A stretch of DNA of 64,000 nucleotides, taken from the NCBI GenBank assembly GCA_965205265.1, contig CBDBGH010000003.1, forward strand, positions 3,136,001 through 3,200,000. The letters run 5' to 3'. Both the position numbers and the translations under genes were made by a program. The notes beneath the pieces are model-generated. The model was not told the DNA's origin. It saw only the letters and a list, made by a program, of their open reading frames with translations, and made no database searches. Below, in pieces: positions 50,741 through 64,000 of the stretch (within the stretch, counting starts at the first letter, position 1; the number at the start of each line of letters is the position of its first letter). Origin of the DNA: Alphaproteobacteria bacterium. Its GTDB lineage: Bacteria; Pseudomonadota; Alphaproteobacteria; Bin95.

Positions 50741-51565
50741 ATGGACGGGCGTCTGGCGGGCAAGGCGGCGCTGGTTGCCGGGGCGGGGTCGATCGCCGAG
50801 GGCTGGTCCAACGGCAAGGCAAGCGCGGTGCTGATGGCGCGCGAGGGCGCGCGGGTTTTCTGTGTGGACCGGGACGCGGCCGCCGCCGAGGAAACCGCGG
50901 CGGAGATCCATGCCGAGGGCGGCGAGGCGCGGGCCTGGCAGGCCGACATGTCGGTCGCGGCCGAAGTCGAGGCGGCGGTGGCCTCCTGCCTCGACGCCTG
51001 GGGCCGGATCGACATCCTCTTCAACAATATCGGCCTCCAGGCCCTCGGCGGCCCGGTGGAGCTGGATGAGGCGGACTGGGACCGGCTGATGACGGTCAAC
51101 GTCAAACCGATGTTCCTCGCCTGCAAGCATGTGCTGCCGGTCATGGTCGAACAGGGGCGCGGCTCTATCGTCAACAACTCGTCGCTGGCGAGCCTGCGCT
51201 TCGCCTATCCCGCAGTTGCCTACTCGGCGTCCAAGGGCGCGGTCAACGAACTCACCCGCAACATCGCCGGGCAATACGCGCCGCAGGGCATACGCTGCAA
51301 TGCGGTGCTGCCGGGGATGATGGCGACGCCGCGCATTACCCGGCGGCTGAAGGAGGTCCACGGCGACGGTTTCGAGAGCGTGCTGGAGGAACGCGCCGGC
51401 ATCGTGCCGATGGGCCGCGCGGGTACGGCCTGGGATGTGGCCTATGCCGTGCTCTTCCTCGCTTCGGACGAGTCGGCCTACATTACCGGAATGGAACTGG
51501 TCGTCGATGGCGGCCTTGCCGCATCGGTGCGCGGCCGGCCCTGGTCCGGGGAGATGGGCGGATGA
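50741..51565 (+). CDS. SDR family oxidoreductase
   Basis: GAGS..EGWSNG, NNIG, YSASKG (YxxxK), NAVLPG, ITG..LVVDGG. Confidence 0.93.
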   Translation: MDGRLAGKAALVAGAGSIAEGWSNGKASAVLMAREGARVFCVDRDAAAAEETAAEIHAEGGEARAWQADMSVAAEVEAAVASCLDAWGRIDILFNNIGLQALGGPVELDEADWDRLMTVNVKPMFLACKHVLPVMVEQGRGSIVNNSSLASLRFAYPAVAYSASKGAVNELTRNIAGQYAPQGIRCNAVLPGMMATPRITRRLKEVHGDGFESVLEERAGIVPMGRAGTAWDVAYAVLFLASDESAYITGMELVVDGGLAASVRGRPWSGEMGG

Positions 51566-53103
51566 CGGCCAGCCTTGCGGCGCTCACTTTCGATTTCGAC
51601 GGCATGTCCGGCTTCATCGCCCGGGGCAGAACCTCGCCGACCGTGCTTTCGCGCGGCGAGTTCGGGGCGGTCGGCGTCGAGCGTATATTGCGGCTTCTGG
51701 ACCGCTACGGCATCGCGGCATCCTTTTTCATTCCGGGCATCACCATCGGCACATGGCCGGACCATTGCCGGCGCATCCACGAGGCCGGCCACGAGATCGG
51801 CCATCACGGCTGGCGCCATATCCCGCCGGTGCAGCTCGCGCGCGAGGAAGAGGCGGACGAGCTCGACCTGGGCATCGCCGCCATAGAGGCGCTGACGGAC
51901 CGGCGGCCGCGCGGCTACCGCTCCCCCGCCTGGGACCTTTCGGAAAACACCGTCGAGCTGCTGCTGGAGCGCGGCTTCGTCTATGACAGCTCGATGATGG
52001 GGCACGACACGCAGCCCTACCGGGTGCGCCGGGGCGATGTCATACATGAGGACAAAGCCTCGACCTTCGGCGAGGAAACCGACCTGCTGGAGCTGCCGGT
52101 CTCCTGGAGCGCGGACGACTGGCCGCATTTCGAATTCATGCCGCCCGGCATGCCCGGCCTCAGAGGCACGAACTCGGTGCTGGAGAACTGGCTGGACGAT
52201 TTCCGCTACATGGTCCGCCATGAGGGAGGAGGGCTGATGACCTACACCTTCCAGGCAGCCCAACGCAGGAAATTCGATCTGGAAAATCCCCGGAACCAGC
52301 TCTTCACCAAGACCGATCTCGCCAAGTACCTGAATGTCTGGGAACAACGGCCGCAGGAAGTGAGCCTGGGTGCGCAGAAGAACTTCGCGGCGTTCGCGCG
52401 GCGCATCGGCCAAGCCTGGAGAAAATCTCGCGACGACTTCAACGAGGCCTGGTATCGTGCGGCGGTCGCGATGGCAATCGTCTTCAGGTCCAGCGAACGC
52501 GTCGTGTCCGCCCAACCCTGGTATCAGGGTGGGTATCGCGCGAACATCGTCGCCTGCACGATCGCGAAGCTTGCCCACGATGTCGCCGATCGGGACCGCG
52601 CGGTGGACCTCGAAGCCATCTGGCGGCGGCAGTCGGCGGGCGGCAACCTCGACGACGCCATTGCGACCGCTGCCGCGGAAGTCCACGCGGTCCTCGTTCA
52701 GCCGCCGGACGGCATCAGCAACGTAACCGAATGGGCAAAGAAGCAGGCATGCCGGGACCGTGTGCGAAACCTCCACATCGATTGGCCGGACGCATTCGTT
52801 CAGGAACTGATTTCATCCGGGGAACTGAGCGATGCGGCCCGGACGGCCCGGCGTGAACAACGCGAACTCGACGGGATCGAGGCGCAGATTGCGGTCGTCA
52901 ACGCCGGCGGTCGGTTCTGGTCGGACGCTCTCGCATGGGGAAAGGCCCGGCGGCTCCTCACGCCGGTCGAAACGGGAATCCTGGAGGTGGCGGCGCGTGT
53001 TCCCGAACGCACGCCGACGGAGAGGCAGTCGTCCAGGGCTGTCGAGGCGTTGCGCAAGCTGCAACGAGAGGGATACGCGGAGAAACTCCCCGAGACTTCC
53101 TGA
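51562..53103 (+). CDS. chimeric ORF: polysaccharide deacetylase (about aa 1-230) fused in frame to AIPR-family C-terminal region
   Basis: TFDFD, HGWRH, RSPAW, YDSS, DDW, then TYTF|QAAQRRKFDLENPRNQLFTKTDLAKY...VSLGAQKNF...GGYRANIV...NVTEWAKKQAC. Confidence 0.8.
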   Translation: MTASLAALTFDFDGMSGFIARGRTSPTVLSRGEFGAVGVERILRLLDRYGIAASFFIPGITIGTWPDHCRRIHEAGHEIGHHGWRHIPPVQLAREEEADELDLGIAAIEALTDRRPRGYRSPAWDLSENTVELLLERGFVYDSSMMGHDTQPYRVRRGDVIHEDKASTFGEETDLLELPVSWSADDWPHFEFMPPGMPGLRGTNSVLENWLDDFRYMVRHEGGGLMTYTFQAAQRRKFDLENPRNQLFTKTDLAKYLNVWEQRPQEVSLGAQKNFAAFARRIGQAWRKSRDDFNEAWYRAAVAMAIVFRSSERVVSAQPWYQGGYRANIVACTIAKLAHDVADRDRAVDLEAIWRRQSAGGNLDDAIATAAAEVHAVLVQPPDGISNVTEWAKKQACRDRVRNLHIDWPDAFVQELISSGELSDAARTARREQRELDGIEAQIAVVNAGGRFWSDALAWGKARRLLTPVETGILEVAARVPERTPTERQSSRAVEALRKLQREGYAEKLPETS

Positions 53104-54203: not shown

Positions 54204-55139
54204 TCAGGCTGGGCAGCGCATGACCGGGATGCCGAGCTGCTTCGCCTTGTCGACGAGGTTCTCTGTGATGCCGGAGCCGGGGAAGGCGATGACGCCCCTG
54301 GGCAGGAGGTTGAGGAGTTCGTCGTTGCGGCGGAAGGGCGCGGCGCGTCCGTGGCGGTCCCAGTCGGGCTTGCAGACGATCTGGTGGACGCCGTTCCGCT
54401 CGGCCCAGCGTGCGGCGATCTTCTCGACGCCGGGGCCGCCGCCGTGCACGAGGACCATGTCGGCGTACTTGGTGCGGGCCTGGTCGAGGCGGGCGATGAC
54501 GGCGGCGGGGTCTGCGATGTCCCTGCCGCCTGCGATGGCGACGAGGGTGCCTTGCGGCAGGTGGGCCATGGTCTCGCGGTCCTTCCGTGCGCGGATGAAG
54601 TCGCGGGCCTCGATGGCGGCGGAGGTGAGCTTGCCGGTCCGGGATGCGTGCGAGCCGTGGCGCGGGCGCCAGACCTCTCCGGTTTCCTCGCGGTAGGCAT
54701 CGGCGCAGGCGTCGCGCATTTTCTCGAAGGCGTCGCGGCGGTCTCCGAGGTTCTGCGCGCGGTGGGTGGTCATCTCCAGCTCGAACGACCTGATCTCGGT
54801 TCCGTCCTGGTCGCGCTGGAGGTCTCGGAGTTCGGGGGTGAGCCTGTCGACGCTGCGGTCGATGCGCTGTGTCTGGGCGTGGAGCATGTTGACGAACCCC
54901 CAGAGCAGGTGTTCGCGCTCGTCGGCGAGCTGTGTGCCGTCGGGGCAGACGCCGTCGCTGAGAATGCGGAAGGCTTCCTCGACGGCGGTCAGCGCATCGT
55001 CCTTGTCCCAGACGACGCGGGGATCGAACTCGTCGCGCTCGGGTGTTGCGCCGAAGAGGGCGGCGTTGTCGCAGACGGTTGCGGTGACGGAGTGCTCGGT
55101 GCTCTCGACGGTGTCGATGTTCTCGATGATGGTGTTCAT
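54204..55139 (-). CDS. DUF2493 / SLOG (YspA-like) domain protein of alphaproteobacterial conjugative elements
   Basis: LLWGFVN..H, RRDAFE.MRD, TG..WRP..GS, LVHGG..G.E.IAA.WA, PDW.RHGRAAPFRRND, FPGSGI..NL.DKA. Confidence 0.88.
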   Translation of the reverse strand: MNTIIENIDTVESTEHSVTATVCDNAALFGATPERDEFDPRVVWDKDDALTAVEEAFRILSDGVCPDGTQLADEREHLLWGFVNMLHAQTQRIDRSVDRLTPELRDLQRDQDGTEIRSFELEMTTHRAQNLGDRRDAFEKMRDACADAYREETGEVWRPRHGSHASRTGKLTSAAIEARDFIRARKDRETMAHLPQGTLVAIAGGRDIADPAAVIARLDQARTKYADMVLVHGGGPGVEKIAARWAERNGVHQIVCKPDWDRHGRAAPFRRNDELLNLLPRGVIAFPGSGITENLVDKAKQLGIPVMRCPA

Positions 55140-55227
55140 GACGATCTCCTTGACGATCGGGTTGCAGCTATCGGAGCGTTGCGCCCCGAAGTGATGTCCT
55201 GTTGGGTCACGCGCGCGCAGCGGAAGC

Positions 55228-55362
55228 ACCGGGTCCGGAATGAATGGCCCGGCGGGATGCGCGAGTGGTGCGGGCGCACAAGCGAGCGGAGCGAGTGCGG
55301 AGCCACGGTCGCGCATTCCGCCGGGCCTAGGCGCTTCAGCGCCGTTTCATTCCGAGTCCCGG
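55228..55362. promoter_or_regulatory. long branched stem-loop upstream of DUF2493 (Frpo/ssi-like)
   Basis: CGGAATGAA..GGCCCGGCGGGATGCGCGA pairs with TCGCGCATTCCGCCGGGCC..TTCATTCCG; loop contains GCGAGCGGAGCGAG. Confidence 0.55.
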
Positions 55363-55576
55363 CCGGAACGGAGCGCGAGCGGAGTGGAGGACCCCGCCGC
55401 CGGCGGGGTTGGTGCAGTGAGCACGTGTGGCACAATGGGACAGCACGCACGCAGGCAAATTCTTTCCCCTTGCACGGACCCGATGGGCGCTGCCGCCCGG
55501 CACGGCCTTCGGGAGCATCCCCGGACCTGTCGGTCAGCCTTGCAAGCGGAGCGCGCAGCTTGACAGTCATGGCGGG

Positions 55577-55804
55577 TCACCCCCACAGCGGATGCGAGAG
55601 GATCCGCTGCCTGGCCACCTCGCGGATGCGGTTGCGGTCATGGACGCGGCAGGGACCGCGCGGATCCTCGTGGAGATGCACCACGAAATACCGCGCACCC
55701 TCGCGCAGCGGATCGTCGAGGGCACAGACGTCGCCGACATGGTCGCCGTCGCAGTAGATGCGGGACTGGTCCGGGGCGATGCGGCGGAAGGCGATGGCGC
55801 TCAT
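55577..55804 (-). CDS. hypothetical protein (75 aa)
   Basis: ATGA overlap with DUF4326 gene; MSAIAFRRIAPDQSRIY...HLHEDPRGP. Confidence 0.6.
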   Translation of the reverse strand: MSAIAFRRIAPDQSRIYCDGDHVGDVCALDDPLREGARYFVVHLHEDPRGPCRVHDRNRIREVARQRILSHPLWG

Positions 55805-56157
55805 GACGCGCCCCCCTCCGCCTGGCGGGCGCTGCGTTCCGCCAGCACCTGCGCCGCCCAGGCCGCCGCGCGGGCCAGCACGTCGCCATGACACGGCTCC
55901 GGCTCGCACCAGCATGCAAGCCAGCAGCCGTCGAGCGCGGCGAGTTCTTGCAGTGACACCTCGCCCGCGCGGATGCGGCGCCAGAGATCGGCGCGGTAGC
56001 GGGCGACCGCCTGTTCCCTCGAACAGGCCGGTGCGATCCGGAACGGGTTTCCCCACTTCGTGCGGCGGTCGATCAGCACGGTGTTGTTGACTACCTGTGC
56101 ATGGTCGAACGCTTCCCGCAGTCTCGGTTCGGTCTTCAGATTGATGACGGCGTCCAT
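55801..56157 (-). CDS. DUF4326 domain protein
   Basis: IDRRTKWGNPF, REQAVARYR, LACWC.PEPCHGDVL. Confidence 0.88.
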   Translation of the reverse strand: MDAVINLKTEPRLREAFDHAQVVNNTVLIDRRTKWGNPFRIAPACSREQAVARYRADLWRRIRAGEVSLQELAALDGCWLACWCEPEPCHGDVLARAAAWAAQVLAERSARQAEGGAS

Positions 56158-56224
56158 CGGCTCCCTCCTCTCCCCGGGTCGGCTTGCCCGACCCTCGCTT
56201 TCCTCTTTCTCCTGCCACGCCGGG

Positions 56225-57223
56225 TCAGGCGCCGGGGCGGAACAGGGGCGCGAGGCGGGCGCGCAGCGCCGCCGCGCCGAGCGCGACCAGGTCGTCGTTG
56301 AAGTCGTTGCCCTGGGGCACGATCGCCGTGGCGGCGACGCCCGCCCGCGCGCAGCGCCGGGCGAGGCGTTCGGCGGCGCGTGCGCCGTCCTCGTCGTTGT
56401 CCCGCGCGATCACGAGGCGGGCGACGCCGGCAGGCGGAGAGAAGGCGCCGAGGCTGCCGGCCGAGAGCGCCGCCGCGGCGCGGATCTCGGGCAGGGCGGC
56501 GACCAGCGAGAGCACGGTCTCGATGCCCTCGCCGACGACCAGCGCAGCGCCGTCGCCGGGCTGGCCGAAGCGCACGGCGAGGCCATGGATGCGTCCGAGC
56601 GCCTTGCGCGGATGGGCGACATCCGCCTTGGCGGGCGAGCGGGGATCGAGCCAGGTGCGCTGGACGCCGAAGAGCCGGCCGCCTGCCCCGGACTGCGATC
56701 CGGAGTCGCCGCCGGTGACGGCGGCGACCAGCGCCGGGAGACGGCGCACCGAGGGGCCTTCGCGGTAGCGAAGCGCCGGGTGGAAGCGCAGCGCCGCGAA
56801 GCGGCAGCGCGCGAGCCCGCGGGCGTGGAGATAGCGCTCGGCATGGCTGCCGTCGAGGGCGCGGCAGCCGCGCCACAGGCGGCGCGCCGCCTCGGTGGCG
56901 TCATACCGCTCGCTGGATACAGGGACGGGGTCCGCCGGCACGGCGAGGAAACGCCGCGCCTCGTCGAGCGCCGCGCGCAGCGTCGGCGCGCGGGAGCGGT
57001 GGCGGATCAGGTCGAGCAGGTCGCCATGCTCGCCCGAGGCCGCGTCGGTGAACTTGCCGGGCGTTCCGGGGCCGGAGAGGCGGACGAAGAGGGAGCGGCC
57101 GCGGGCGCCGTCGATATCGCCGCAGATCCAGTAGCGGCCCTGCCGCCGTCCGTTGGGCAGGTAGTGGCGGCAGACTTCCTCGGCGCGCTCCGCGAGCGCG
57201 GCGGCGAGGGCGCCGGCATTCAT
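56225..57223 (-). CDS. toprim-domain primase-like protein of conjugative elements
   Basis: AEEVCRHYL..GRR.G.YW..GD..G..GRS, GDLLDLI, LRFHP, RTWLD, GEGIETVLS, ARDND, DFNDDL. Confidence 0.9.
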   Translation of the reverse strand: MNAGALAAALAERAEEVCRHYLPNGRRQGRYWICGDIDGARGRSLFVRLSGPGTPGKFTDAASGEHGDLLDLIRHRSRAPTLRAALDEARRFLAVPADPVPVSSERYDATEAARRLWRGCRALDGSHAERYLHARGLARCRFAALRFHPALRYREGPSVRRLPALVAAVTGGDSGSQSGAGGRLFGVQRTWLDPRSPAKADVAHPRKALGRIHGLAVRFGQPGDGAALVVGEGIETVLSLVAALPEIRAAAALSAGSLGAFSPPAGVARLVIARDNDEDGARAAERLARRCARAGVAATAIVPQGNDFNDDLVALGAAALRARLAPLFRPGA

Positions 57224-57403
57224 GGCCGGCCCCCGCCCGGGCAGGCGGGACGGCAATGGATTGCGGGACATGGCGGGACTCCTCCATCGGGACGGAACGC
57301 TCGATACCGGCCGGTCTCCGCCCCCGCCTGGCGCCGGAGAAGGCGCGCGCCGCGCGAAACGCGGACGCGCCATGGGGGCCGGGGACGCCTCCGGATCGGC
57401 AGC

Positions 57404-57433
57404 AAAAAAGAGGCCGGCGCCGAAGCGCCGGCC
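57404..57433 (-). terminator. Rho-independent terminator after ssb
   Basis: Minus strand GGCCGGCGC-TTCG-GCGCCGGCC-TCTTTTTT. Confidence 0.85.
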
Positions 57434-57463
57434 CGAGTTGGGAGGGAGGAAGCGTGATGCCGA

Positions 57464-57913
57464 TCAGAACGGAATCCGGTCGGCGTCCATGTCCGAGGGC
57501 GCCGGGGCGGGAGCCGTGCCGGCGTCGCCCGCCATGTCGGGGCCGGGCTGGCTCCGGGCGCCGTTGCCCTTGTCCAGGAACTGCACGCGCCCGCCCGGGA
57601 CCAGCAGGATCTCGGTCGAGAAGCGGTCGGAGTCCTCGCCCTCCTTCTTCCAGCGCCGGGTCTGGAGCTTGCCCGCGACATAGACCAGACGACCCTTCAC
57701 CGCGTTCTTGACCAGCATGTCGATGAGGCCGTCCTGGAAGGTCACGACCCGGTGCCACTCGGTGCGGTCGATCCGCTCGCCGTTCTTGTCGATATAGGAT
57801 TCGTCGGTGGCGATGCTCATGTTGGCGACGCGGCCGCCGCTCTGGAGGTGGTTGACGGTGACGTCGGCGCCGAGGCGGCCGATCAGTTCCGCGCGATTGA
57901 GACCGAATGCCAT
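57464..57913 (-). CDS. ssb: single-stranded DNA-binding protein (element-encoded)
   Basis: LNRAELIGRLGAD, SIATDE, TEWHRVV, KG.LVYV.GKLQTRRW, C-terminal DADRIPF. Confidence 0.95.
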   Translation of the reverse strand: MAFGLNRAELIGRLGADVTVNHLQSGGRVANMSIATDESYIDKNGERIDRTEWHRVVTFQDGLIDMLVKNAVKGRLVYVAGKLQTRRWKKEGEDSDRFSTEILLVPGGRVQFLDKGNGARSQPGPDMAGDAGTAPAPAPSDMDADRIPF

Positions 57914-58020
57914 GGAGAATCTCCTTGAATGGCTGGTTGCTGACGATGGGTTGCGAACGGGGGAAGCCGGGTCGATCCCTCTCCCCGGCCCCCTGCCGCT
58001 CACCTTCTTCCCGCTTTCCT

Positions 58021-58317: not shown

Positions 58318-59577
58318 TCACCAGGGTGGCGCCGTCAGCAAAGCCATGGGGCTGGCATCGCACAGCACCTCGACCTCGTCGCGCGAGAGCTTCTCGAAGA
58401 CGAGGCAGAGCGCGACATCGGCCTCGCTGTCGAACGGCCCGTGCTCGCGCCCGGTGGCGATCTCGATCACCGTATACTGCGGGTCCCAGAACGGGATGCC
58501 GCGGAACGCGCCCGAACTCTCGCGGTGCCTGCGCGAACAGGGCTCGCAACGCGCCACGCCCGGCGAGGGCGCGTTGCAGGCGACACAGCGGCCCCGGGCC
58601 CTCCGACCGGCATAGCGGTCGCGGCGGGCGGCGTGTTCGGCCTCGCGGTCGCGGCGCTCGGCCCTGACGACGGCGCAGGGCGCGCAGTAAGCGGCGCCAT
58701 CGAAGGTGGGTGCCTGACACTTGACGCAGACCCCGGCGGTTCTGCGGGCGTCGTAGCGGTCGCGGGCGGCGTCGCGACAGTCCTGGCACTCGGCCGCCCC
58801 GTTGGCCGGCTTGCCGCAACTGGTGCAATCGCCCCGGGCCTTGCGTTCGGCATAACGCCGGCGGTCGGCCTCCCGCTTCGCCTTCCGGTCCCGCCGCCGG
58901 CTCCGGGTCCCGGCGCAAGGCGGGCAATACGCCCTGCCGTCCGGCGCGGGCGCCGCGCACCGGACGCACAATCCGGCGGCGCGGCGATCATGATGGCGGG
59001 CGCGTTTCGCCTGCCGCCTGTCCGCGCGGCACGGCCCGCACATGGTCCGGCCCTCTTCGGGCGGGGTGTTGCCGCAGCGGGTGCAGAGGCCGGCGGCCTG
59101 GCGGGCCTCGCTGCGCCGGCGGCTGCGCTCCCGTCCGGCCCGGCGCCGGGCTTCCGGGTCGCGCCCGCCATAGGGTATCCCCTGGGCCCTGGCCCGGGCG
59201 TCACGCTTGCGGTCGCGCGCGCGATGCTTTTCCGCGCAAGGCCCGCAGGTCGTGCGGTCCGGGCGCGCCGGGGCCCGGCCGCACCTGGTGCAGATGCCGG
59301 CGGCCGCGCGCTCGGCATAGAGCTTGCGGTCGCGCTTGCGCCCCTGGCGCCTTGCCCGTTCGGGGTCGCGCCGGGGTTTCCTGCCGGCCCGCAGGCGGGC
59401 GTCCCGCGCCCGGCTCGCGCGGTTCCGTTTCTCGTTGCAGGGCGCGCACAGGCGGCGTTCCGGCACAGGGCCGGTCCGGCCGCATCCCGGGCACAGGCCG
59501 GCCTCGGTCCGTGCGGCGGTGCGTCTGGCGATGCGCGCGCGGTCGCGCTGACGGATCTCCGGATCGGCACAGGCCAT
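58318..59577 (-). CDS. Arg-rich protein with seven tandem C4 zinc-finger repeats
   Basis: Seven G-x-CxxC-x9-11-CxxC units separated by basic helices; GAGGAGG RBS. Confidence 0.85.
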   Translation of the reverse strand: MACADPEIRQRDRARIARRTAARTEAGLCPGCGRTGPVPERRLCAPCNEKRNRASRARDARLRAGRKPRRDPERARRQGRKRDRKLYAERAAAGICTRCGRAPARPDRTTCGPCAEKHRARDRKRDARARAQGIPYGGRDPEARRRAGRERSRRRSEARQAAGLCTRCGNTPPEEGRTMCGPCRADRRQAKRARHHDRRAAGLCVRCAAPAPDGRAYCPPCAGTRSRRRDRKAKREADRRRYAERKARGDCTSCGKPANGAAECQDCRDAARDRYDARRTAGVCVKCQAPTFDGAAYCAPCAVVRAERRDREAEHAARRDRYAGRRARGRCVACNAPSPGVARCEPCSRRHRESSGAFRGIPFWDPQYTVIEIATGREHGPFDSEADVALCLVFEKLSRDEVEVLCDASPMALLTAPPW

Positions 59578-60008: not shown

Positions 60009-60383
60009 GGTGCCGTCTCCTTCGTGCCGATGAGGGGAAACGGACGAACGCCCTCTCCCGGACATCCGACCGCCGCCCTGCTCACGGCCAACGCTCCCCT
60101 CTTGATGGAGCGAGGCGCGGACACGGAGACGACGGCCGGCCGGCGGCGCGGCACGCGGGGGCCGGAAGGCCAACTCAGGGTGGTGAGAGAAGACCGGACG
60201 CGGGCACGAGCGGCCGACGAATACAGCGGGCCATGGCGCGCGTCGGACCCCGAGCGCGACTTGCGCGCATGCGGGTCGGGCTACTCGGACTGATGGACGC
60301 GGATATAGACGCGCTGTTCGGCCCGGCGCAATCGGGGTCCCCTGCCGACCCGCGAACGCGGTAGAGCAGTGCTGTGGAAATTC

Positions 60384-60697
60384 GGAACCACCCAGGGCCG
60401 GGGGGCTACGATCGGGACAAACTCTTCGACAAGCCCCGCGAGGACGTCTGGCTTCGACCTCTCCGGCTCCGGAACGAGTTCGTCGCCCGCTACCACTATC
60501 TCGGATACAAGACCCTGGTCGGCGCCCAGATGCGCTACGCCGTCCATGACCGCAACGGCTGGCCGCTCGCCATGCTCGGCTTCTCCACCGCCGCCTGGAA
60601 GCTCGCTCCGCGCGACAACTTCATCGGGTGGACGCCCGAGAAGCGCGAGAAGAACCTGCCGCTCGTGGTCGACAACCCGCGCTTCCTGATATTGCCC
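60384..60697 (+). pseudogene. DUF4338 (Druantia DruA-like/IS-associated) gene fragments in permuted order
   Basis: GTTQGRG/YDRDKLFDKPREDVWLRPL followed by NEFVARYHYLGYKTLVGAQMRY...AAWKLAPRDNFIGW...VVDNPRFLILP. Confidence 0.75.
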
Positions 60698-60797
60698 CCG
60701 CAACCACCTCAAGCCCCTGAAAACACTGGAGTTTTCGGGGGCTTTGTCGTTTCCGGGAGGCGGCCAAATAGTCCTCCGTCAACACATGGTCAACACG
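60693..60797 (+). other. att-like relic: tRNA-fMet 3' end, hairpin and GTCAACAC direct repeats
   Basis: TGCCCCCGCAACCA (60693-60706); AAGCCCCTGAAAAC...GTTTTCGGGGGCTT; GTCAACACATGGTCAACAC. Confidence 0.6.
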
Positions 60798-61165
60798 GGC
60801 GCGCATCGTGACCGCGGACACGCCAAGATGCCGGCGGCATTTGTTCGGGCGGGCTGTGGAGCATCCGGGCAGATCAGGGACGATGAGTAGCGACAATCCC
60901 CGGATGCCGATTACCCAGAGATTCCGAGCTTGTCGCAGCCTGACTGTTCCATGGTTCTTCCGCACGCATACGGCCGTGTACGCCTCGACCGAAAGACCGA
61001 AATCGGCGGTTTGAGGCGTGTGCGCTGTCGGGGACGGGCTGATTTACAAGGCGTTCACGGAGGCGCGAGATTTTTGATACCCCGTGGTGGTCGTTGATAT
61101 CCGGGGTTTCAGTTTCGCTGCGGCGGTCGTTTTGGCGATTTTCACCCCACGCCGATGGTCGCGGC

Positions 61166-61480
61166 GTAAGCGTCCGACAAGGACCGCAGGGTATGTCGGT
61201 TTGAGTTTGTCTGCGGGGTGCTGTTGATCGGGACGGATCGGGCGGGCTTGTCTGGCTATGCGGCGTTATCGTGCCGCTGGCTGTCCTGCCGGTTCCATGG
61301 AAGGAGTTCGCCGAGCCGGCTCTGCGGCGTCTCCGCGATCCGGCGCAGGACATCGGCGAGCCAGGCCTGGGGATCGACGTTGTTGAGCTTGGCGGTTCCG
61401 ATGAGGGTATACATGGCCGCGGCGCGCCTGCCGCCGCGGTCGGAGCCGGCGAACAGCCAGGATTTGCGGCCGAGGGCGAT
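61166..61480 (-). mobile_element. tnpC: IS66-family right end with 3' end of tnpC (interrupted)
   Basis: Terminal IR GTAAGCGTCCG at 61166; 61480-61256 encodes IALGRKSWLFAGSDRGG.RAAAMYTLIGTAKLNNVDPQAWLADVL...ELLPWN*. Confidence 0.92.
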
Positions 61481-61488
61481 CGTGCATT

Positions 61489-61962
61489 CATTCTGCCCAT
61501 GTCGGGCAGGACTGCGTCATCCATTACCCGTGGCATGCCCATTTCGGCCGCCGTGTCCGCCTTGAAGTTATCGAACAGCGTGCCGACGGCCTCATGGCCT
61601 CTGTCGAGGTAGAGCCCGGGCTGGTCATCAAGATTCCCGCCTGGTCGCTCGATCCTGCGTCATGCGCCGGCATGGAGATCGGCGCGCCGCGTGTATCCCT
61701 GGCCGCTCTTGCCGCGCTTCACGAGGTTCTCGTCGGCCAGGGTTTTAGACGAAGCTCCTCCGCTGACGGGACGGTTAGTGAGGAGGAGCTCAATGAAGTC
61801 TTTGGCTGTACCGGCGAGGCCGCCGGGCGAGTTCCGACAGCTCAGCATGCTGTTGGACACACCGGCGCTGCGTGGCCTGAACCGGGAGGAACGCGACGCG
61901 GTCGTGGGCGCGCTGGCCGGGCTGCTTCTGGAAGCGGCGGATTTCGCGGTGAAGGAGGATGA
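61489..61962 (+). CDS. LSR-associated accessory ORF; conserved-looking region begins at the element end, before the first ATG
   Basis: HSAHVGQDCVIHYPWHAHFGRRV...EVEPGLVIKIPAWSLDPASCAGMEIGAPRVSLAAL; first ATG only at 61594. Confidence 0.55.
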   Translation, partial: HSAHVGQDCVIHYPWHAHFGRRVRLEVIEQRADGLMASVEVEPGLVIKIPAWSLDPASCAGMEIGAPRVSLAALAALHEVLVGQGFRRSSSADGTVSEEELNEVFGCTGEAAGRVPTAQHAVGHTGAAWPEPGGTRRGRGRAGRAASGSGGFRGEGG

Positions 61963-61978
61963 CGATGAGCACCTCTGA
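61793..61978 (+). CDS. small LSR-associated protein (61 aa)
   Basis: GAGGAGGAG RBS; RQLSMLLD...ERDAVVGALAGLLLEAA....EDDDEHL; overlaps LSR start. Confidence 0.7.
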   Translation: MKSLAVPARPPGEFRQLSMLLDTPALRGLNREERDAVVGALAGLLLEAADFAVKEDDDEHL

Positions 61979-64000
61979 TGCGTTGCCGCGATCGGTGTTG
62001 ACGCGCAAGGCCGTGGTTTATGTCCGTCAGTCCACGCCCCAGCAGATGCGGAACAATCTCGAGAGCCAGCGCCGCCAATACGATCTCGTCAACGTGGCGC
62101 GCGGGCACGGTTTCGCCCGGGTTGAGGTCATCGACGAAGATCTGGGCCTGTCGGCGAGTGGCGCCATCGCACGGCCGGGTTTCGAGCGTCTCGTCGCCTG
62201 GCTGTGTGCCGGGGACGTCGGAGCGGTACTTTGCTTCGAGGCGTCTCGCATCTCCCGCAACGGCCGGGACTGGCACCATCTGCTCGAGCTCTGCGGTCTC
62301 GTGGAGGCCCGCGTCATCGACCTGGATGGCATCTATGATCCTCGCCACCCAAACGACCGCTTGCTGCTCGGACTTAAGGGCCAGATCAGTGAGTTCGAAC
62401 TCGGCGTTCTCCGCGCACGGATGCTCGACGCCGCCCGATCCAAGGCAGCGCGCGGCGAGCTTCGCATCAGCGTCCCGATCGGTTACGTGTGGCATCCCCA
62501 AGGCGGGCTGGGGCTGGATCCTGACATTCGGGTTCAGGAAGCGATCCGTCAGATATTCGCCCGATTTCGCGAGCTGGGCAGCGCGCGGCAGGTCCTGTTG
62601 ACGCTGGTCGAGCAGCAGCATTGCTTCCCGCGCCCGTCAGATGGCAGGACAACGGTTAGCTTCGACTGGACGCCGATCCGCTATCGCAATGTGATTTCGG
62701 TATTGAAGAACCCCTTCTACGCTGGTGTCTATGCCTACGGCAAAAGCGAACAACGAACCGAGATCGTCGACGGGCGGGTGCACAAAAGCTATGGCCACCG
62801 GAGACCGATGGCGGAATGGGAGGTCATGCTGAAGGACCATCACGAGGGCTACATCGATTGGGCGGAGTTCGAGCGCAACCAGGCGCAACTCGCCGCCAAC
62901 GCCTTCGGCTGGTCCGGCGGCGCGAAGTCCGGGCGCGGCGGACGGGCGCTGCTGAGCGGACTTCTCAGCTGTGGGCGCTGCGGCCGCTCAATGTCAGTCG
63001 CCTATGCTGGGCAATCACCGGGCAATCCTGTTTATTTCTGCAACCGGCAACACCTCCAGCTCGGGCTCGATCGCTGTCTGAGGTTCGGCGGCGCGCGTGT
63101 GGATGCCGCCATTGCCGATGAGATCATCGGGGTCGTCGAGCCCTTGGCCGTGGAAGCCTCCTTGAAGGCCGAGCGGGTGAAGGTGGAGGGCCTGAGCGAA
63201 CAACAGCGAGTGGCCGAGCTGGACCTGCAGCAAGCCCGCTACGAAGCATCACTCGCCGAGCGGCGCTATGCCGCCTGCGATCCGGACAACCGGTTGATTG
63301 CCGCCGAGCTGGAGAAGAGTTGGGAGGCGGCGCTTCGCCGCGTCCAGGTGTGCGAAGCGCGGCTGGAGGCAATGCGGTCGCCGTCACCGCAGCCCTCGGG
63401 ACCGGATCTGGCCGGGCTTGCCGATGACCTGAAGGCAGCCTGGAACGCGCCGGGGGTGAGCATGCGTGCCCGCCAGCGGCTCGTACGCACCCTGATCGCC
63501 GGCATCGTCGCCGATGTCGACGAGGAAGCGCGCGAAGTCCTGCTGACGATCCACTGGGTCGGTGGCCGCCATTCCCGATTGCGGGTTCGAAAGCCCAGAA
63601 CCGGTGAACATGGCTGCCGAACGCCCGAGGAAGCGCTGGCGGTGATACGCAGCATGGCCGGGCGGTGGTCGGACGAACATATCGCTGCGTCTCTCAACCG
63701 GATGGGCATGCGGACCGGCCAGCACAAGAGCTGGACCGGCAAGCGGGTCGGATCGATCCGTCGCGTGAACGGGATCGACGGCTATCTCTCAGCGGACAAG
63801 CAGGGCGATTGGTACACCATGACCGAGGCGGCGAACGAGTTGGGCACCACCAGCCATACGCTCAGGCGCCTCATCGAGGATGGAACGCTACCCGCCACGC
63901 AGCTCGTTCCCCGAGCGCCTTGGCAGATCAGAGCCGCGGACCTCCATTCAGAGAGCGTTGCTCACGCCCTGGCACAAAGGAAAGGCCCGCGTCGCACTTC
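61965..64000 (+). CDS. large serine recombinase (resolvase + recombinase + Zn ribbon + C-terminal HTH), runs off window
   Basis: Not in ORF track (no stop in window): AVVYVRQST, EASRISRN, NDRLLLGLKG.ISEFEL, LKNPFYAG.Y, LSGLLSCGRCG, VDPDNRLIA-like, TMTEAANELG. Confidence 0.95.
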   Translation, partial: MSTSDALPRSVLTRKAVVYVRQSTPQQMRNNLESQRRQYDLVNVARGHGFARVEVIDEDLGLSASGAIARPGFERLVAWLCAGDVGAVLCFEASRISRNGRDWHHLLELCGLVEARVIDLDGIYDPRHPNDRLLLGLKGQISEFELGVLRARMLDAARSKAARGELRISVPIGYVWHPQGGLGLDPDIRVQEAIRQIFARFRELGSARQVLLTLVEQQHCFPRPSDGRTTVSFDWTPIRYRNVISVLKNPFYAGVYAYGKSEQRTEIVDGRVHKSYGHRRPMAEWEVMLKDHHEGYIDWAEFERNQAQLAANAFGWSGGAKSGRGGRALLSGLLSCGRCGRSMSVAYAGQSPGNPVYFCNRQHLQLGLDRCLRFGGARVDAAIADEIIGVVEPLAVEASLKAERVKVEGLSEQQRVAELDLQQARYEASLAERRYAACDPDNRLIAAELEKSWEAALRRVQVCEARLEAMRSPSPQPSGPDLAGLADDLKAAWNAPGVSMRARQRLVRTLIAGIVADVDEEAREVLLTIHWVGGRHSRLRVRKPRTGEHGCRTPEEALAVIRSMAGRWSDEHIAASLNRMGMRTGQHKSWTGKRVGSIRRVNGIDGYLSADKQGDWYTMTEAANELGTTSHTLRRLIEDGTLPATQLVPRAPWQIRAADLHSESVAHALAQRKGPRRT

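Follow-up and report, generated by a model that had tools for sequence, protein, structure and literature searches.

Near the right end of the window (the whole 64,000-nt stretch of DNA analyzed here), an IS66 transposase gene breaks off within a conserved motif, and genes on the opposite strand begin at the break. The locus raises the question of what entered the transposase gene, why it did so at this codon, and how the first of the inserted genes, which has no start codon ahead of its conserved part, could be expressed. The explanation that we find best overall, and consider probable, is an autonomous element moved by a large serine recombinase (LSR), with its attB in IS66, whose accessory gene would be split by integration and would act as a sensor of the integration state.

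The element and its attachment sites

The host of the insertion passes as IS66 by its DDE_Tnp_IS66, zf-IS66, LZ and C-terminal domains (PF03050 at 5.6e-80, PF13005, PF13007 and PF13817, respectively). The ends of this IS66 read GTAAGC...GCTTAC, and the terminal repeat beginning GTAAGC sets a boundary at 61166 that is common to three copies in the genome. The stretch 61166-61477 (minus strand) holds the IS66 right end with the 3' part of tnpC. The coding sequence (61259-61480, stop at 61256-61258) gives the last 74 residues of TnpC, reads IALGRKSWLF from 61480, and matches positions 340-387 of the 387 positions of NF033517 as well as PF13817 (7.9e-19). Therefore, the end of the tnpC homology just before IALGRKSWLF, as seen in an earlier note on this DNA, was confirmed.

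The same note had expected that reading past position 64000 would lead to the LSR stop and then to the remainder of tnpC. We found the LSR stop at 64035-64037, the end of the element at 64067 and, to the right of it, the N part of tnpC in reverse complement, ending in ..NNAAERCLRGI and covering NF033517 positions 4-338. Thus, tnpC is cleanly split by the element, with positions 4-338 of the model on one side and 340-387 on the other, and the carrier IS is disabled because its transposase gene is split.

The element is 2,590 bp long, and its left 97% (61478-64000) falls within the window. It lies antisense within tnpC, exactly at the Ala codon of RGI-A-LGRK. The crossover dinucleotide GC makes up the first two bases of this codon on the minus strand (61476-61477) and is present again at 64066-64067. 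An accessory gene, a 61-aa gene and a gene for a 692-aa LSR make up the content of the element, and all three were found where the earlier reading had placed a three-gene cassette on the strand opposite to tnpC. In contigs of public runs the element was assembled as one 2593-nt unitig.

The LSR gene runs on the plus strand from 61959, or more likely from 61965 (behind GGAGG), through the window edge at 64000 to 64034. A Pfam scan of the 692 residues gave Resolvase (PF00239, 8.1e-22, residues 18-167), Recombinase (PF07508, 4.5e-17), Zn_ribbon_recom (PF13408, 2.8e-07) and HTH_17 (1.9e-06, residues 618-663) only, with no DUF4368. The last of these domains is the extra C-terminal HTH that had been suspected from the translation. 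We also observed that S25 in VVYVRQST was invariant across 31 aligned sequences and that the protein was weakly similar to SPbeta integrase structures (2.2e-06). The match to the IS607 model NF033518 (E-value 0.0013, 18.3 bits) was under the cut-off of 110. On these features the protein is assigned to the large serine recombinase (serine integrase) family.

Next to the LSR gene stand two small conserved genes. One is the accessory gene, discussed below. The other, the 61-aa ORF (61793-61978, plus strand), codes for a small acidic protein and has its own ATG in the integrated form. The GC3 in this frame was 0.8-0.87 over 61810-61960, and ORFs at the same place were found in loci L026, L029 and L032 (59-61 aa) and in L031 (78 aa). 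The 61-aa protein has a conserved ..ALAxLLLEA.. stretch and no match to a Pfam or NCBIfam family.

In the left, or P', half-site (61478-61509, plus strand), a spacer of 10 nt precedes the core TCATTCTGC (61488-61496) and the palindrome CTGCCC-ATGTC-GGGCAG (61493-61509). Its mirrored counterpart at the right end of the element is GCAGAATGA; a 9-bp inverted core lies 10 nt to either side of the crossover. Inside the accessory ORF the half-site encodes HSAHVGQ, and in 26 distinct elements it was nearly invariant at the DNA level, third codon positions included. At the right end, outside the window, a G-rich SD-like block is followed by an ATG at 64052-64054, the P half-site, the crossover at 64066-64067 and the N part of tnpC on the minus strand.

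For the copies A, D and E of the element in this genome, GC was the only dinucleotide common to the left and right junctions. The pair GC/GC was also the commonest among the loci with both ends located (18 of 58). The flanks read through as one gene, with the 2-nt crossover alone present on both sides; therefore, the target is not duplicated. One public run has contigs in which a related IS66, free of the element, is continuous across the crossover. Judged by sequence, the sites show imperfect dyad symmetry, and recombination between them at the central dinucleotide would be conservative.

The mechanism we propose starts from an autonomous, insertion-sequence-like element of 2.59 kb with the LSR as its sole enzyme. 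Its integration would be site-specific and conservative, involving a 2-nt crossover and leaving the target unduplicated, and would take place within about 40 bp coding for a highly conserved IS66 TnpC motif (..AER.LRGI/ALGRKxWLF..). Insertion would split and silence the transposase gene, and precise excision would restore it.

Copies and targets in this genome and in others

The presence of an LSR element at this site is beyond chance, since the five copies in the genome (A to E) agree at 2587 of 2587 nt and the junction recurs in dozens of other genomes. The surroundings of the copies are more variable. The two IS66 parts compared were 93.0% and 96.4% alike for copy C and 99.1% and 96.1% alike for copy B. 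The IS66 to the right of copy D is a different one (..NPAERAMRPI), and copy E lies within a DarT gene (PF14487, 3.6e-23). Because the element copies are identical while their hosts are only 93-99% alike, a separate entry into each IS66 copy has to be assumed. By this comparison the element has recently entered at least four different genomic sites, including at least two diverged IS66 types and a look-alike site in DarT. The DarT and IS66 sites have GGCCGAGG beside the crossover in common, with the register off by 1 nt, and we do not press this resemblance.

The earlier note had the element riding on a multicopy IS. In its strong form this would mean that IS66 transposition is the main route by which the IS66::LSR composite spreads, the LSR element being a hitch-hiking passenger. 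Three copies of the whole 5.25-kb composite are indeed present, and the IS66 ends at copy C, and at this copy only, are flanked by an 8-bp direct repeat, CGCAAGCG. However, all copies of the passenger are 100% identical, against a divergence of 1-7% among the carriers; neither copy A nor copy B shows a target duplication, and two of the element copies lie outside this IS66 type. Moreover, tnpC is split in every copy of the carrier type, and the genome has no intact copy of that type: among the tnpC matches listed for the genome (n = 28), 4 were occupied, 21 belonged to other sequence types and were intact, and 3 were short of the site. We regard spread by hitch-hiking as highly improbable. The identical copies in diverged hosts and the copy in DarT indicate that riding on the IS is not the main mode of spread of the element; a multicopy IS would rather offer it a set of landing pads.

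To place the locus among its relatives, the insertion sites of LSR homologs were tabulated, as the earlier note had advised. In contigs from one genome per species, relatives were encoded in 467 of the 524 pattern matches. The left flank at 81 loci was IS66 in antisense (54), IS66 in sense (8), too short (10) or 'other' (9), the last class including several diverged IS66. These flanks support the proposal that a conserved IS66 tnpC codon serves as attB, and relatives use this same site in either orientation. Sister lineages were found in istB and in IS110 transposase genes. One of them splits the IS21 IstB at PF01695 positions 100/101 (Walker-A codons), while another splits IS110-family transposases at a conserved motif near PF01548 position 90. 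The crossover dinucleotide tracks the target codon and was GC, AC, TT, GT or GG. Target choice is sequence-specific, as seen from the 28 tnpC matches listed for this genome, where the intact genes were of other sequence types.

Such targets could also be read as the mark of a domesticated, reversible off-switch for IS66, IS21 and IS110 transposases, which would mainly benefit the host and would not be selfish. For example, the codons struck are always those of catalytic or otherwise essential motifs, which precise excision would restore. On the other hand, conserved motifs are simply the most reliable multicopy target sequences. The element is multicopy, patchy (present in 7 of 37 genomes of the order) and often decayed, and it is enriched on conjugative plasmids, which made up 408 of the 662 plasmid records with matches, model rhizobia among them. 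Cultivable carriers include Rhizobium johnstonii 3841 (on plasmid pRL12), Sinorhizobium meliloti SM11 and Azospirillum brasilense. Multiple copies, patchiness, decay and enrichment on conjugative plasmids form the pattern of a selfish mobile element, and we find domestication quite improbable.

The accessory gene and its start codon

The accessory gene at 61478-61962 (plus strand) is complete except for its first ~5 codons, the RBS and the start; its conserved domain spans ~61480-61780. The frame is open over 61405-61962, with the first ATG, GTG or TTG at 61594, and the tail of the gene overlaps the 61-aa ORF in another frame. The conserved part (HSAHVG..IHYPWH..FG) begins at 61489, that is, 35 codons before the ATG at 61594 and 9 nt from the end of the tnpC homology, very near to the 35 codons and about 10 bp of the earlier reading. 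Gene callers differ over the start of the gene, and in the PLSDB gene table (from RefSeq) no accessory CDS is given for pRL12.

The frame is under purifying selection, with a synonymous/non-synonymous ratio of 2.55 compared to 0.15 and 0.20 in the other frames. A profile search found 3273 representative relatives. In the AF2 model (pLDDT 77.7) an SH3-like barrel is followed by a helix. This fold is uninformative on function, as it matches only generic SH3/Tudor/KOW/PsaE barrels (Foldseek best E-value 0.12; VIA Z at most 6.3). The possibility that the HSAHVG stretch is purely a DNA-level feature, with the ORF being no gene, was rejected on the frame-specific synonymous excess, the confident fold and the 3273 relatives.

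The protein-language-model neighbors of the accessory protein were DUF5372 clusters (score 0.93). PF17342 was matched by 3 of 47 members of the accessory family, with a best E-value of 3.6e-5, and the protein from the window had no match to it at E-values up to 1 (gathering score 25 bits). The accessory protein is thus predicted to be a distant DUF5372 relative with an SH3-like barrel. We know of no function for DUF5372.

When the two ends were joined in silico, as the earlier note had suggested, an SD-like block and an ATG or GTG, located 14 nt before the right crossover, came in frame with the startless accessory ORF. With the right junction placed from the flank alone, 28 of 30 IS66-flanked rows had an ATG at exactly this distance of 14 nt from the crossover; it was in frame, had no stop after it and was preceded by a G-rich block. 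The same arrangement was seen in all five non-IS66 elements, with GTG as the start in one, and in these elements as well as in the 28 rows codons 5 and 6 of the reconstructed ORF lie on either side of the crossover. We read this as attP lying inside an ORF of the element itself, as in an integration-dependent gene switch, so that integration would change the product.

The element thus carries its own attachment site inside its first gene. The SD-like block, the ATG and the first 4 2/3 codons are located at the right end, directly after the LSR stop, and the remainder of the gene at the left end. Because of this layout integration would strip the accessory gene of its translation start, and the full protein would be encoded only by an excised circle or by copies in tandem.

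The start codon at the right end could, however, be a by-product of the att symmetry, with the accessory protein being made in the integrated state from a flank-supplied or non-canonical start or by read-through. The ATG lies within the invariant mirrored core AATGA/TCATT: AATG was present in 24-26 of 26 P arms, and its mirror GGGCAGAATGA was invariant in P'. As this is the most conserved block of the dyad core, the position and frame of the ATG in the IS66-targeting lineage could be held by LSR binding alone. Furthermore, 17 of 157 predicted accessory proteins take an in-frame ATG from the antisense IS66 Ser-Trp codons (TCA TGG); some integrated copies could therefore still be translated. Copy C, too, carries a GTG in frame, three codons upstream of the conserved part.

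Still, a start supplied by the flank cannot be general, since the elements are found in either orientation and their hosts are four unrelated genes (IS66, IstB, IS110 transposase and DarT). Copies A, B and D have no ATG, GTG or TTG upstream in the open accessory frame. The symmetry does not extend to the G-rich block 5-9 nt upstream of the ATG, which has no mirror in P'. Nor does it always extend to the start triplet: among the five non-IS66 elements, the IS110-targeting elements and that at L031 leave the mirror there (ATG versus CAC; GTG versus CAT in P') and still have ATG or GTG. We consider a by-product of symmetry unlikely and prefer a start codon that is separated from its gene upon integration. 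A scan for sigma-70-like promoters within and at the ends of the element gave 0 sites, with a consensus that may not suit this host.

Joined forms were sought in several data sets. In two metagenome contigs the LSR end, the SD, the ATG and the accessory gene follow each other in that order. The first is cut by IS3, and the second has only ~60 nt of the left end, followed by IS66; both are thus rearranged and may represent tandem copies or remnants instead of circles. The attP pattern was found in 0 of 117 other loci, nowhere in this genome and in no viral contigs. The N-terminus M[TN]xSSxS..H, in which His occupies residue 10 as expected from the join, was found in 6 of the 157 predicted proteins and implies further joined forms, on short or rearranged contigs. 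Logan contigs of four public runs had no joint of the right end to the left end; such contigs drop rare variants and are uninformative on circles. For this organism, circle formation is inferred.

In serine integrase systems the recombination directionality factor (RDF), such as phiC31 gp3, Bxb1 gp47 or SPbeta SprB, is required for attL x attR recombination and inhibits attP x attB recombination. The earlier note saw the accessory protein as a candidate for such a factor, switched on when attP re-forms. Being a small protein, conserved beside the LSR, with its expression tied to the integration state, it would look the part. Besides, at locus L117 a canonical DUF5372 gene (7.9e-22) precedes an HTH gene and an ORF of 644 aa, the N-terminus of which resembles that of a serine recombinase. 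However, an RDF is required in the integrated state, exactly when the accessory gene has no start. An RDF made from the circle only would block re-integration and would be missing when excision must begin, and the intact 61-aa gene is an equally good candidate for an excision factor. A classical directionality factor is thus unlikely, and its activation by a re-formed attP seems to us very improbable. A protein that would be made from attP alone fits better the role of an integration-phase or regulatory cofactor.

The division of labor that we envisage leaves the 61-aa gene and the LSR expressible in the integrated element, where they would perform excision, and assigns the circle phase to the circle-only DUF5372-like protein of SH3 type. 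This protein could favor attP x attB recombination, oppose a factor for excision, or regulate LSR expression by feedback. After successful integration it would vanish and, by doing so, provide a built-in sensor of the integration state.

Known systems and biological meaning

The clostridial elements Tn4451/Tn4453 (TnpX) and Tn5397 (TndX) resemble the present element in that an LSR serves as the 'transposase' and movement is conservative, with a 2-nt crossover and no target duplication. Lyras and Rood are said to have found in 2000 that the Tn4451 circle junction creates the tnpX promoter, so that expression depends on the excised state. In the present element, by contrast, the split affects no promoter but the coding sequence of a separate gene. 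The Tn4451/Tn5397 group carries cargo such as resistance genes, measures at least 6 kb and uses short degenerate targets, while the present element has no cargo, 2.6 kb, a long specific target in transposase genes and no DUF4368. Durrant et al. describe the TndX-like clade as multi-targeting, with DUF4368 in 63% of its LSRs.

Mycobacteriophage BPs and its relatives, which show integration-dependent immunity, likewise have attP inside a gene of their own that reports the integration state. Broussard and colleagues reportedly described in 2013 that the BPs attP lies within such a gene, whose product is altered by integration. In BPs a tyrosine integrase removes the 3' end of the repressor gene with a degradation tag, and the protein is still made, whereas in the present element a serine recombinase removes the 5' end with the RBS and start, and the protein should not be made. 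Integration-dependent immunity of the BPs type is the subject of PMC4557955.

The IS607 family shares with the present element the size of an IS and movement by a serine recombinase. Its transposase belongs to the small serine recombinases, binds DNA through an N-terminal domain and shows low target specificity. RIT elements, with recombinases in a trio, are also small and recombinase-only. They use three tyrosine recombinases and another chemistry, and the accessible part of PMC2864759, where the RIT element ritA1B1C1 of C. metallidurans CH34 is reported to inactivate an IS66-family tnpA gene, mentions neither systematic targeting of transposase motifs nor a split gene.

The literature searched had no LSR elements in IS66, IS21 or IS110 transposase genes and no description of DUF5372; subscription journals, ISfinder/TnCentral and supplements were outside its scope, and a prior description may therefore exist. 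With a little less than even confidence, we suggest that the locus represents a widespread unnamed guild of cargo-free LSR mini-elements, hyperparasites retargeted to motifs of IS66 TnpC, IS21 IstB and IS110 transposases and equipped with a circle-only cofactor for the integration phase.

If so, this guild would knock out transposase genes reversibly while using them as multicopy, horizontally mobile landing pads, and the DUF5372-like protein specific to the circle would represent a novel type of LSR cofactor, active during integration, as the opposite of an RDF. The family would be a simple and widespread one, which pipelines mostly label 'recombinase family protein / hypothetical protein' inside a broken IS66. 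A start codon present only on the excised form would make a very compact switch of the integration state, and direction control in small LSR elements without a phage-type circuit could be tested with three genes and two 50-bp sites. The long, specific and naturally diversified att sites may yield a series of orthogonal LSR/att pairs for genome engineering. More generally, mobile elements would systematically prey on other mobile elements at catalytic-motif codons, which would bear on the control of IS load and on the frequency of pseudogene copies of IS66, IS21 and IS110.

Anatomy of the element and its junctions

Two mobile elements, one nested in the other, occupy the last 2.8 kb of the window (C3:3136001-3200000 in a genome of 5.7 Mb). 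The outer one is an IS66 element whose right end is situated on the minus strand at 61166-61480, with the terminal repeat beginning GTAAGC at 61166. The last 74 codons of its tnpC gene (61259-61480, minus strand, starting with IALGRKSWLF) matched positions 340-387 of the 387-position model NF033517, as well as PF13817. The inner element has three genes on the plus strand: an accessory open frame from 61478 to 61962, with its conserved part starting at 61480-61489; a 61-aa ORF at 61793-61978; and a gene of a 692-aa large serine recombinase (LSR). The LSR gene starts at 61959 or, more likely, at 61965, a candidate start with GGAGG 6 nt ahead of it; its stop codon (64035-64037) is outside the window. 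In Pfam and NCBIfam scans the LSR showed the Resolvase, Recombinase and zinc-ribbon domains and an extra C-terminal HTH_17 domain of excisionase type. In the integrated form of the window element, the accessory frame had no ATG, GTG or TTG start before 61594.

The description given in the earlier note, a three-gene cassette inside IS66 tnpC, was borne out in all its features, as was the expectation that the 5' remainder of tnpC would follow the LSR stop. In the genome sequence beyond the window the element ends at 64067, 67 nt past the window end, and is followed directly by tnpC in reverse complement, with its codons ending in ..NNAAERCLRGI. This N-terminal part matched NF033517 positions 4-338 along with the IS66 DDE, zinc-finger and leucine-zipper domains; thus, the break in the gene is clean and falls between the I and the A of RGI-A-LGRK.

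The dinucleotide GC was the only one common to all left and right junctions compared among the copies in this genome. The crossovers at 61476-61477 (left) and 64066-64067 (right) are 2,590 bp apart, crossover to crossover, and coincide with the first two bases of a tnpC alanine codon on the coding strand. Inverted cores are positioned 10 nt inside each crossover, GCAGAATGA at the right end and TCATTCTGC at the left end (61488-61496), an arrangement that, as read from the sequence, is the attP layout of serine integrases. Where the target codon was Val, Lys, Thr or Pro, the crossover was AC, TT, GT or GG, respectively, on both sides. Insertion in both orientations fits a palindromic GC crossover. 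In the sequencing run X20, contigs of a related IS66 free of the insertion were continuous across the insertion point. We also observed elements with unlike left and right dinucleotides (GC/AC, AC/GC, GC/GT) at L085, L086 and L089 of one MAG and at L068, L074, L091 and L111; tolerance of one overlap mismatch in recombination, or later mutation, could produce this pattern.

The left half-site TCATTCTGCCCATRTCGGGC was nearly invariant as DNA, third codon positions included, among 26 distinct elements from other genomes. Therefore, the conservation of HSAHVGQ, previously read as that of a protein, is such only in part, and some of the signal comes from a DNA site. Inside this half-site, just outside the LSR core half-site, is the palindrome CTGCCC-ATGTC-GGGCAG (61493-61509; perfect 6-bp arms, 5-nt spacer). 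Nearly all relatives conserve it as DNA, and the right end has nothing equivalent. It could serve as an operator, bound by the extra HTH of the LSR or by the accessory protein, or else form an mRNA hairpin.

Upstream in the window we observed an ORF with polysaccharide deacetylase and AIPR (abortive-infection-type) domains (51562-53100, plus strand); a run of genes for a YAcAr/SLOG protein, DUF4326, a DUF7146-Toprim protein and SSB, typical of integrative or conjugative islands (54207-57970, minus strand), with the IS66::LSR composite located at the edge of a mobile island; and a 419-aa ORF with many repeated Cys-x2-Cys pairs, Arg-rich linkers and no Pfam match (58321-59577, minus strand). A 145-aa ORF (60374-60808, plus strand) matched the 297-position Druantia DruA model over positions 64-142 only (2.5e-17) and appears to be a truncated defence gene, some 360 bp upstream of the IS66 end. 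Past the window, at the window-equivalent 67770-69583, is a 1.8-kb repeat with at least 11 genome copies at 99-100% identity, presumably another IS.

Target choice and mobility

The genome has five copies of the element (A, the window copy, to E), identical over 2587 of 2587 nt. For the IS66 carrying copy C, identity to that of the window copy was 93.0% in the C part and 96.4% in the N part, and the N part of the copy B carrier was 99.1% and 96.1% identical over two matching segments. The right flank of copy D is another IS66 type (..NPAERAMRPI), while copy E splits a DarT-family gene (left flank matching PF14487 at 3.6e-23) whose frame resumes on the right. The 8-bp IS66 target duplication was found at copy C only. 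Identical elements in diverged carriers, and at a site outside IS66, indicate several recent separate entries. The idea that the element rides on a multicopy IS is therefore not upheld: the IS copies are landing pads, silenced by insertion. The element chooses a DNA sequence rather than IS66 as such. Among the 28 tnpC matches listed as approaching the site in this genome, 4 were occupied, 3 stopped short of the site and 21 were intact, the latter being of other sequence types (ALTRKNALF, VLTRKNALF, KLTAKNALF and similar). All genome copies of the preferred IS66 type have been inactivated by the element.

Copies B and D are positioned head to head outside the window (C3:2324228-2332100), and the IS66 end of copy B directly adjoins the tnpC fragment next to copy D, at the position equivalent to 61386. 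The IS66 types on the two sides of copy D are unlike, and copies A and B have no IS66 target duplications. This layout suggests that homologous recombination, or the LSR, has produced rearrangements between copies. At a related locus, L078, C-terminal parts of tnpC are present on both sides of the element in opposite orientations, a footprint expected of inversion between two oppositely oriented copies.

Homologues of the accessory protein were found in 7 of 37 genomes of the order. In a scan of one genome per species, 467 of 524 pattern matches encoded a relative. The best 80 came from Alpha-, Beta- and Gammaproteobacteria, Acidobacteria, Chloroflexota, Gemmatimonadales and Dormiibacterota, many being contigs of 2585-2866 nt, i.e., the repeat alone. 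For these 80 loci and the window's own (n=81), the left flank was IS66 tnpC in antisense in 54 and in sense in 8, in agreement with the proposal that a tnpC codon serves as attB; it was shorter than 30 nt in 10 and of other kinds in 9, several of them diverged or frameshifted IS66.

Relatives of the LSR were present in 662 plasmid records, 397 with at least 80% LSR coverage; the top hosts were Rhizobium (144), Sinorhizobium (111) and Bradyrhizobium (81). In R. johnstonii 3841, plasmid pRL12 (L119) has a 59-aa small gene and the recombinase annotated next to IS66 tnpB and tnpA. The PLSDB gene table has no CDS for the accessory gene at this locus (2350-2840) of a well-annotated plasmid, which is consistent with a gene that has no recognisable start when integrated.

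Sister lineages use other transposition genes. Elements of the IS21 lineage (L031, L032, L133), with LSR ~47% and accessory protein ~35% identical, are inserted antisense in istB at the Walker-A codons, with flanks matching PF01695 positions 2-100 and 101-227. The IS110 lineage (nine matches in one genome, one in another) interrupts IS110-family transposase genes between ..VKPFV and K.NKNDA.DAEAI, with a flank matching PF01548 from position 90 and PF02371. At least three unrelated transposition proteins are thus hit at codons of highly conserved motifs.

A gene split between the element ends

The accessory frame behaves as coding: in 117 element pairs at 80-97% nucleotide identity, the ratio of synonymous to non-synonymous single-change codons was 2.55, compared to 0.15 and 0.20 in the other two frames. 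The window protein had no Pfam or NCBIfam match; a profile of 47 members found 3273 representative proteins at E ≤0.001, including 1263 at E ≤1e-10. AlphaFold2 confidently predicted (pLDDT 77.7) a small beta-barrel with a helix after it, and the only structural resemblances of this model were to generic SH3/Tudor/KOW barrels (best E 0.12 in Foldseek; VIA Z ≤6.3). DUF5372 matched 3 of the 47 relatives, and a protein atlas placed the family beside DUF5372 clusters (score 0.93). At locus L117 a canonical DUF5372 gene precedes an HTH gene and an LSR-like ORF, so the association of DUF5372-type proteins with LSRs may be older than the window's element. At another locus, L118 (G296:C13), we saw by eye a canonical DUF5372 ORF upstream of, and on the same strand as, an N-terminally short IS66-family-like transposase ORF, with no LSR nearby; this may be a remnant of a related element. 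A match to PF05691 (raffinose synthase / Sip1) in 21 of 47 accessory proteins (best E 3.5e-06, alignment A4) looks like a model artefact, perhaps due to bacterial element sequence in the seed, and not biology. No paper naming DUF5372 was found in a full-text search of the open-access literature.

With the right junction fixed from the IS66 flank alone, the right end was joined to the left in silico (30 rows). In 28 rows the crossover had, exactly 14 nt ahead of it, an ATG that read into the accessory ORF in frame and with no intervening stop, and a G-rich block (GAAGAGGGGG and similar) preceded this ATG by 5-9 nt, right after the LSR stop. The exceptions were a deleted copy (L071) and a spurious flank match (L081), the latter normal in position by separate junction placement. 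For the window element the predicted joined N-terminus is MTPSSRSCIHSAHVG. The same layout was found in all five non-IS66 elements examined (crossovers GG, GA, AC, AC and GT, same on both sides); the start was ATG in four of them and GTG in the fifth. The end-joining proposed in the earlier note thus produced an in-frame start and an SD-like block in both groups.

Natural joined forms exist as well. A pattern spanning both half-sites matched two metagenome contigs and was absent from 117 other loci and from the source genome. L113 runs without a break from the LSR 3' end and its stop, through the SD and ATG, into an intact accessory N-terminus (MKPSSQAPFHSAHVG...), after which an IS3 cuts the gene; L114 has the same junction, with IS66 sequence after ~60 nt.

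Predicted N-termini of 157 metagenome relatives, classed by the position of the HSAH-motif His, were erratic. The HSAHVG-type motif was not found in 68 (many begin after it, the rest are diverged); 49 had long flank-derived extensions (His beyond residue 14); in 17 the ATG came from IS66 Ser-Trp codons read in antisense (His at residue 11); 17 had various other short starts (His at residues 3-7, 12 or 13); and six had the join-predicted form M[TN]xSSxS..H (His at residue 10), on contigs of 660-2712 nt from three source collections. In the IS66-targeting lineage, LSR binding alone could fix the position and frame of the ATG, since the right-end ATG is inside the invariant mirrored core (AATGA vs TCATT). 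Against this, the upstream G-rich block has no mirror counterpart; in the IS110-targeting elements and L031, the triplet is off the mirror, yet still ATG or GTG; and insertion in both orientations and in four unrelated target genes makes a general start from the flank impossible. We consider the split of the accessory gene to be probably a functional feature.

Proposed cycle and known systems

The copies and junctions show an apparently conservative integration into a specific target, recent movement and one gene whose start is located at the opposite end. While integrated, the element could produce just the 61-aa protein and the LSR, and these would excise it and restore the target gene. In the circle, transcription through the LSR gene would cross attP into the accessory gene, now equipped with an RBS and start; its product would act in the circle phase, and integration would break the gene again. 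A sigma-70-like scan, with a consensus that may not suit this host, found no promoter-like sites in the element.

A classical recombination directionality factor (RDF) is needed in the state opposite to the circle. For this reason, the earlier suggestion of such a factor is probably wrong, the gene being startless where an RDF is needed; as an RDF the protein is very improbable. An integration-phase cofactor or anti-excision factor, which we put forward tentatively, and an autoregulator of LSR expression, itself rather unlikely, are favoured over it.

The clostridial LSR transposons Tn4451 and Tn5397 work in the same way; compared to them, the window element has no cargo and is far more site-specific. 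The circle-junction promoter of Tn4451 is a precedent for state-dependent expression through an att site. The window LSR is not of IS607 type (18.3 bits vs a cut-off of 110), and in the Pfam scan it lacked the DUF4368 that Durrant et al. report for most LSRs of the TnpX/TndX-like clade. Integration-dependent immunity of phage BPs (PMC4557955) also makes expression state-dependent via an att site; in BPs a tyrosine integrase removes the 3' end of a repressor gene. An IS66-family tnpA has been reported to harbour a RIT element, of the tyrosine-recombinase kind (PMC2864759). A full-text search of the open-access literature gave no description of LSR elements targeting IS66, IS21 or IS110 genes. 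The element is of a known kind, an LSR-driven transposable element; what is unusual is its systematic parasitism of the transposition genes of other elements and a gene that comes together only when the element is excised.
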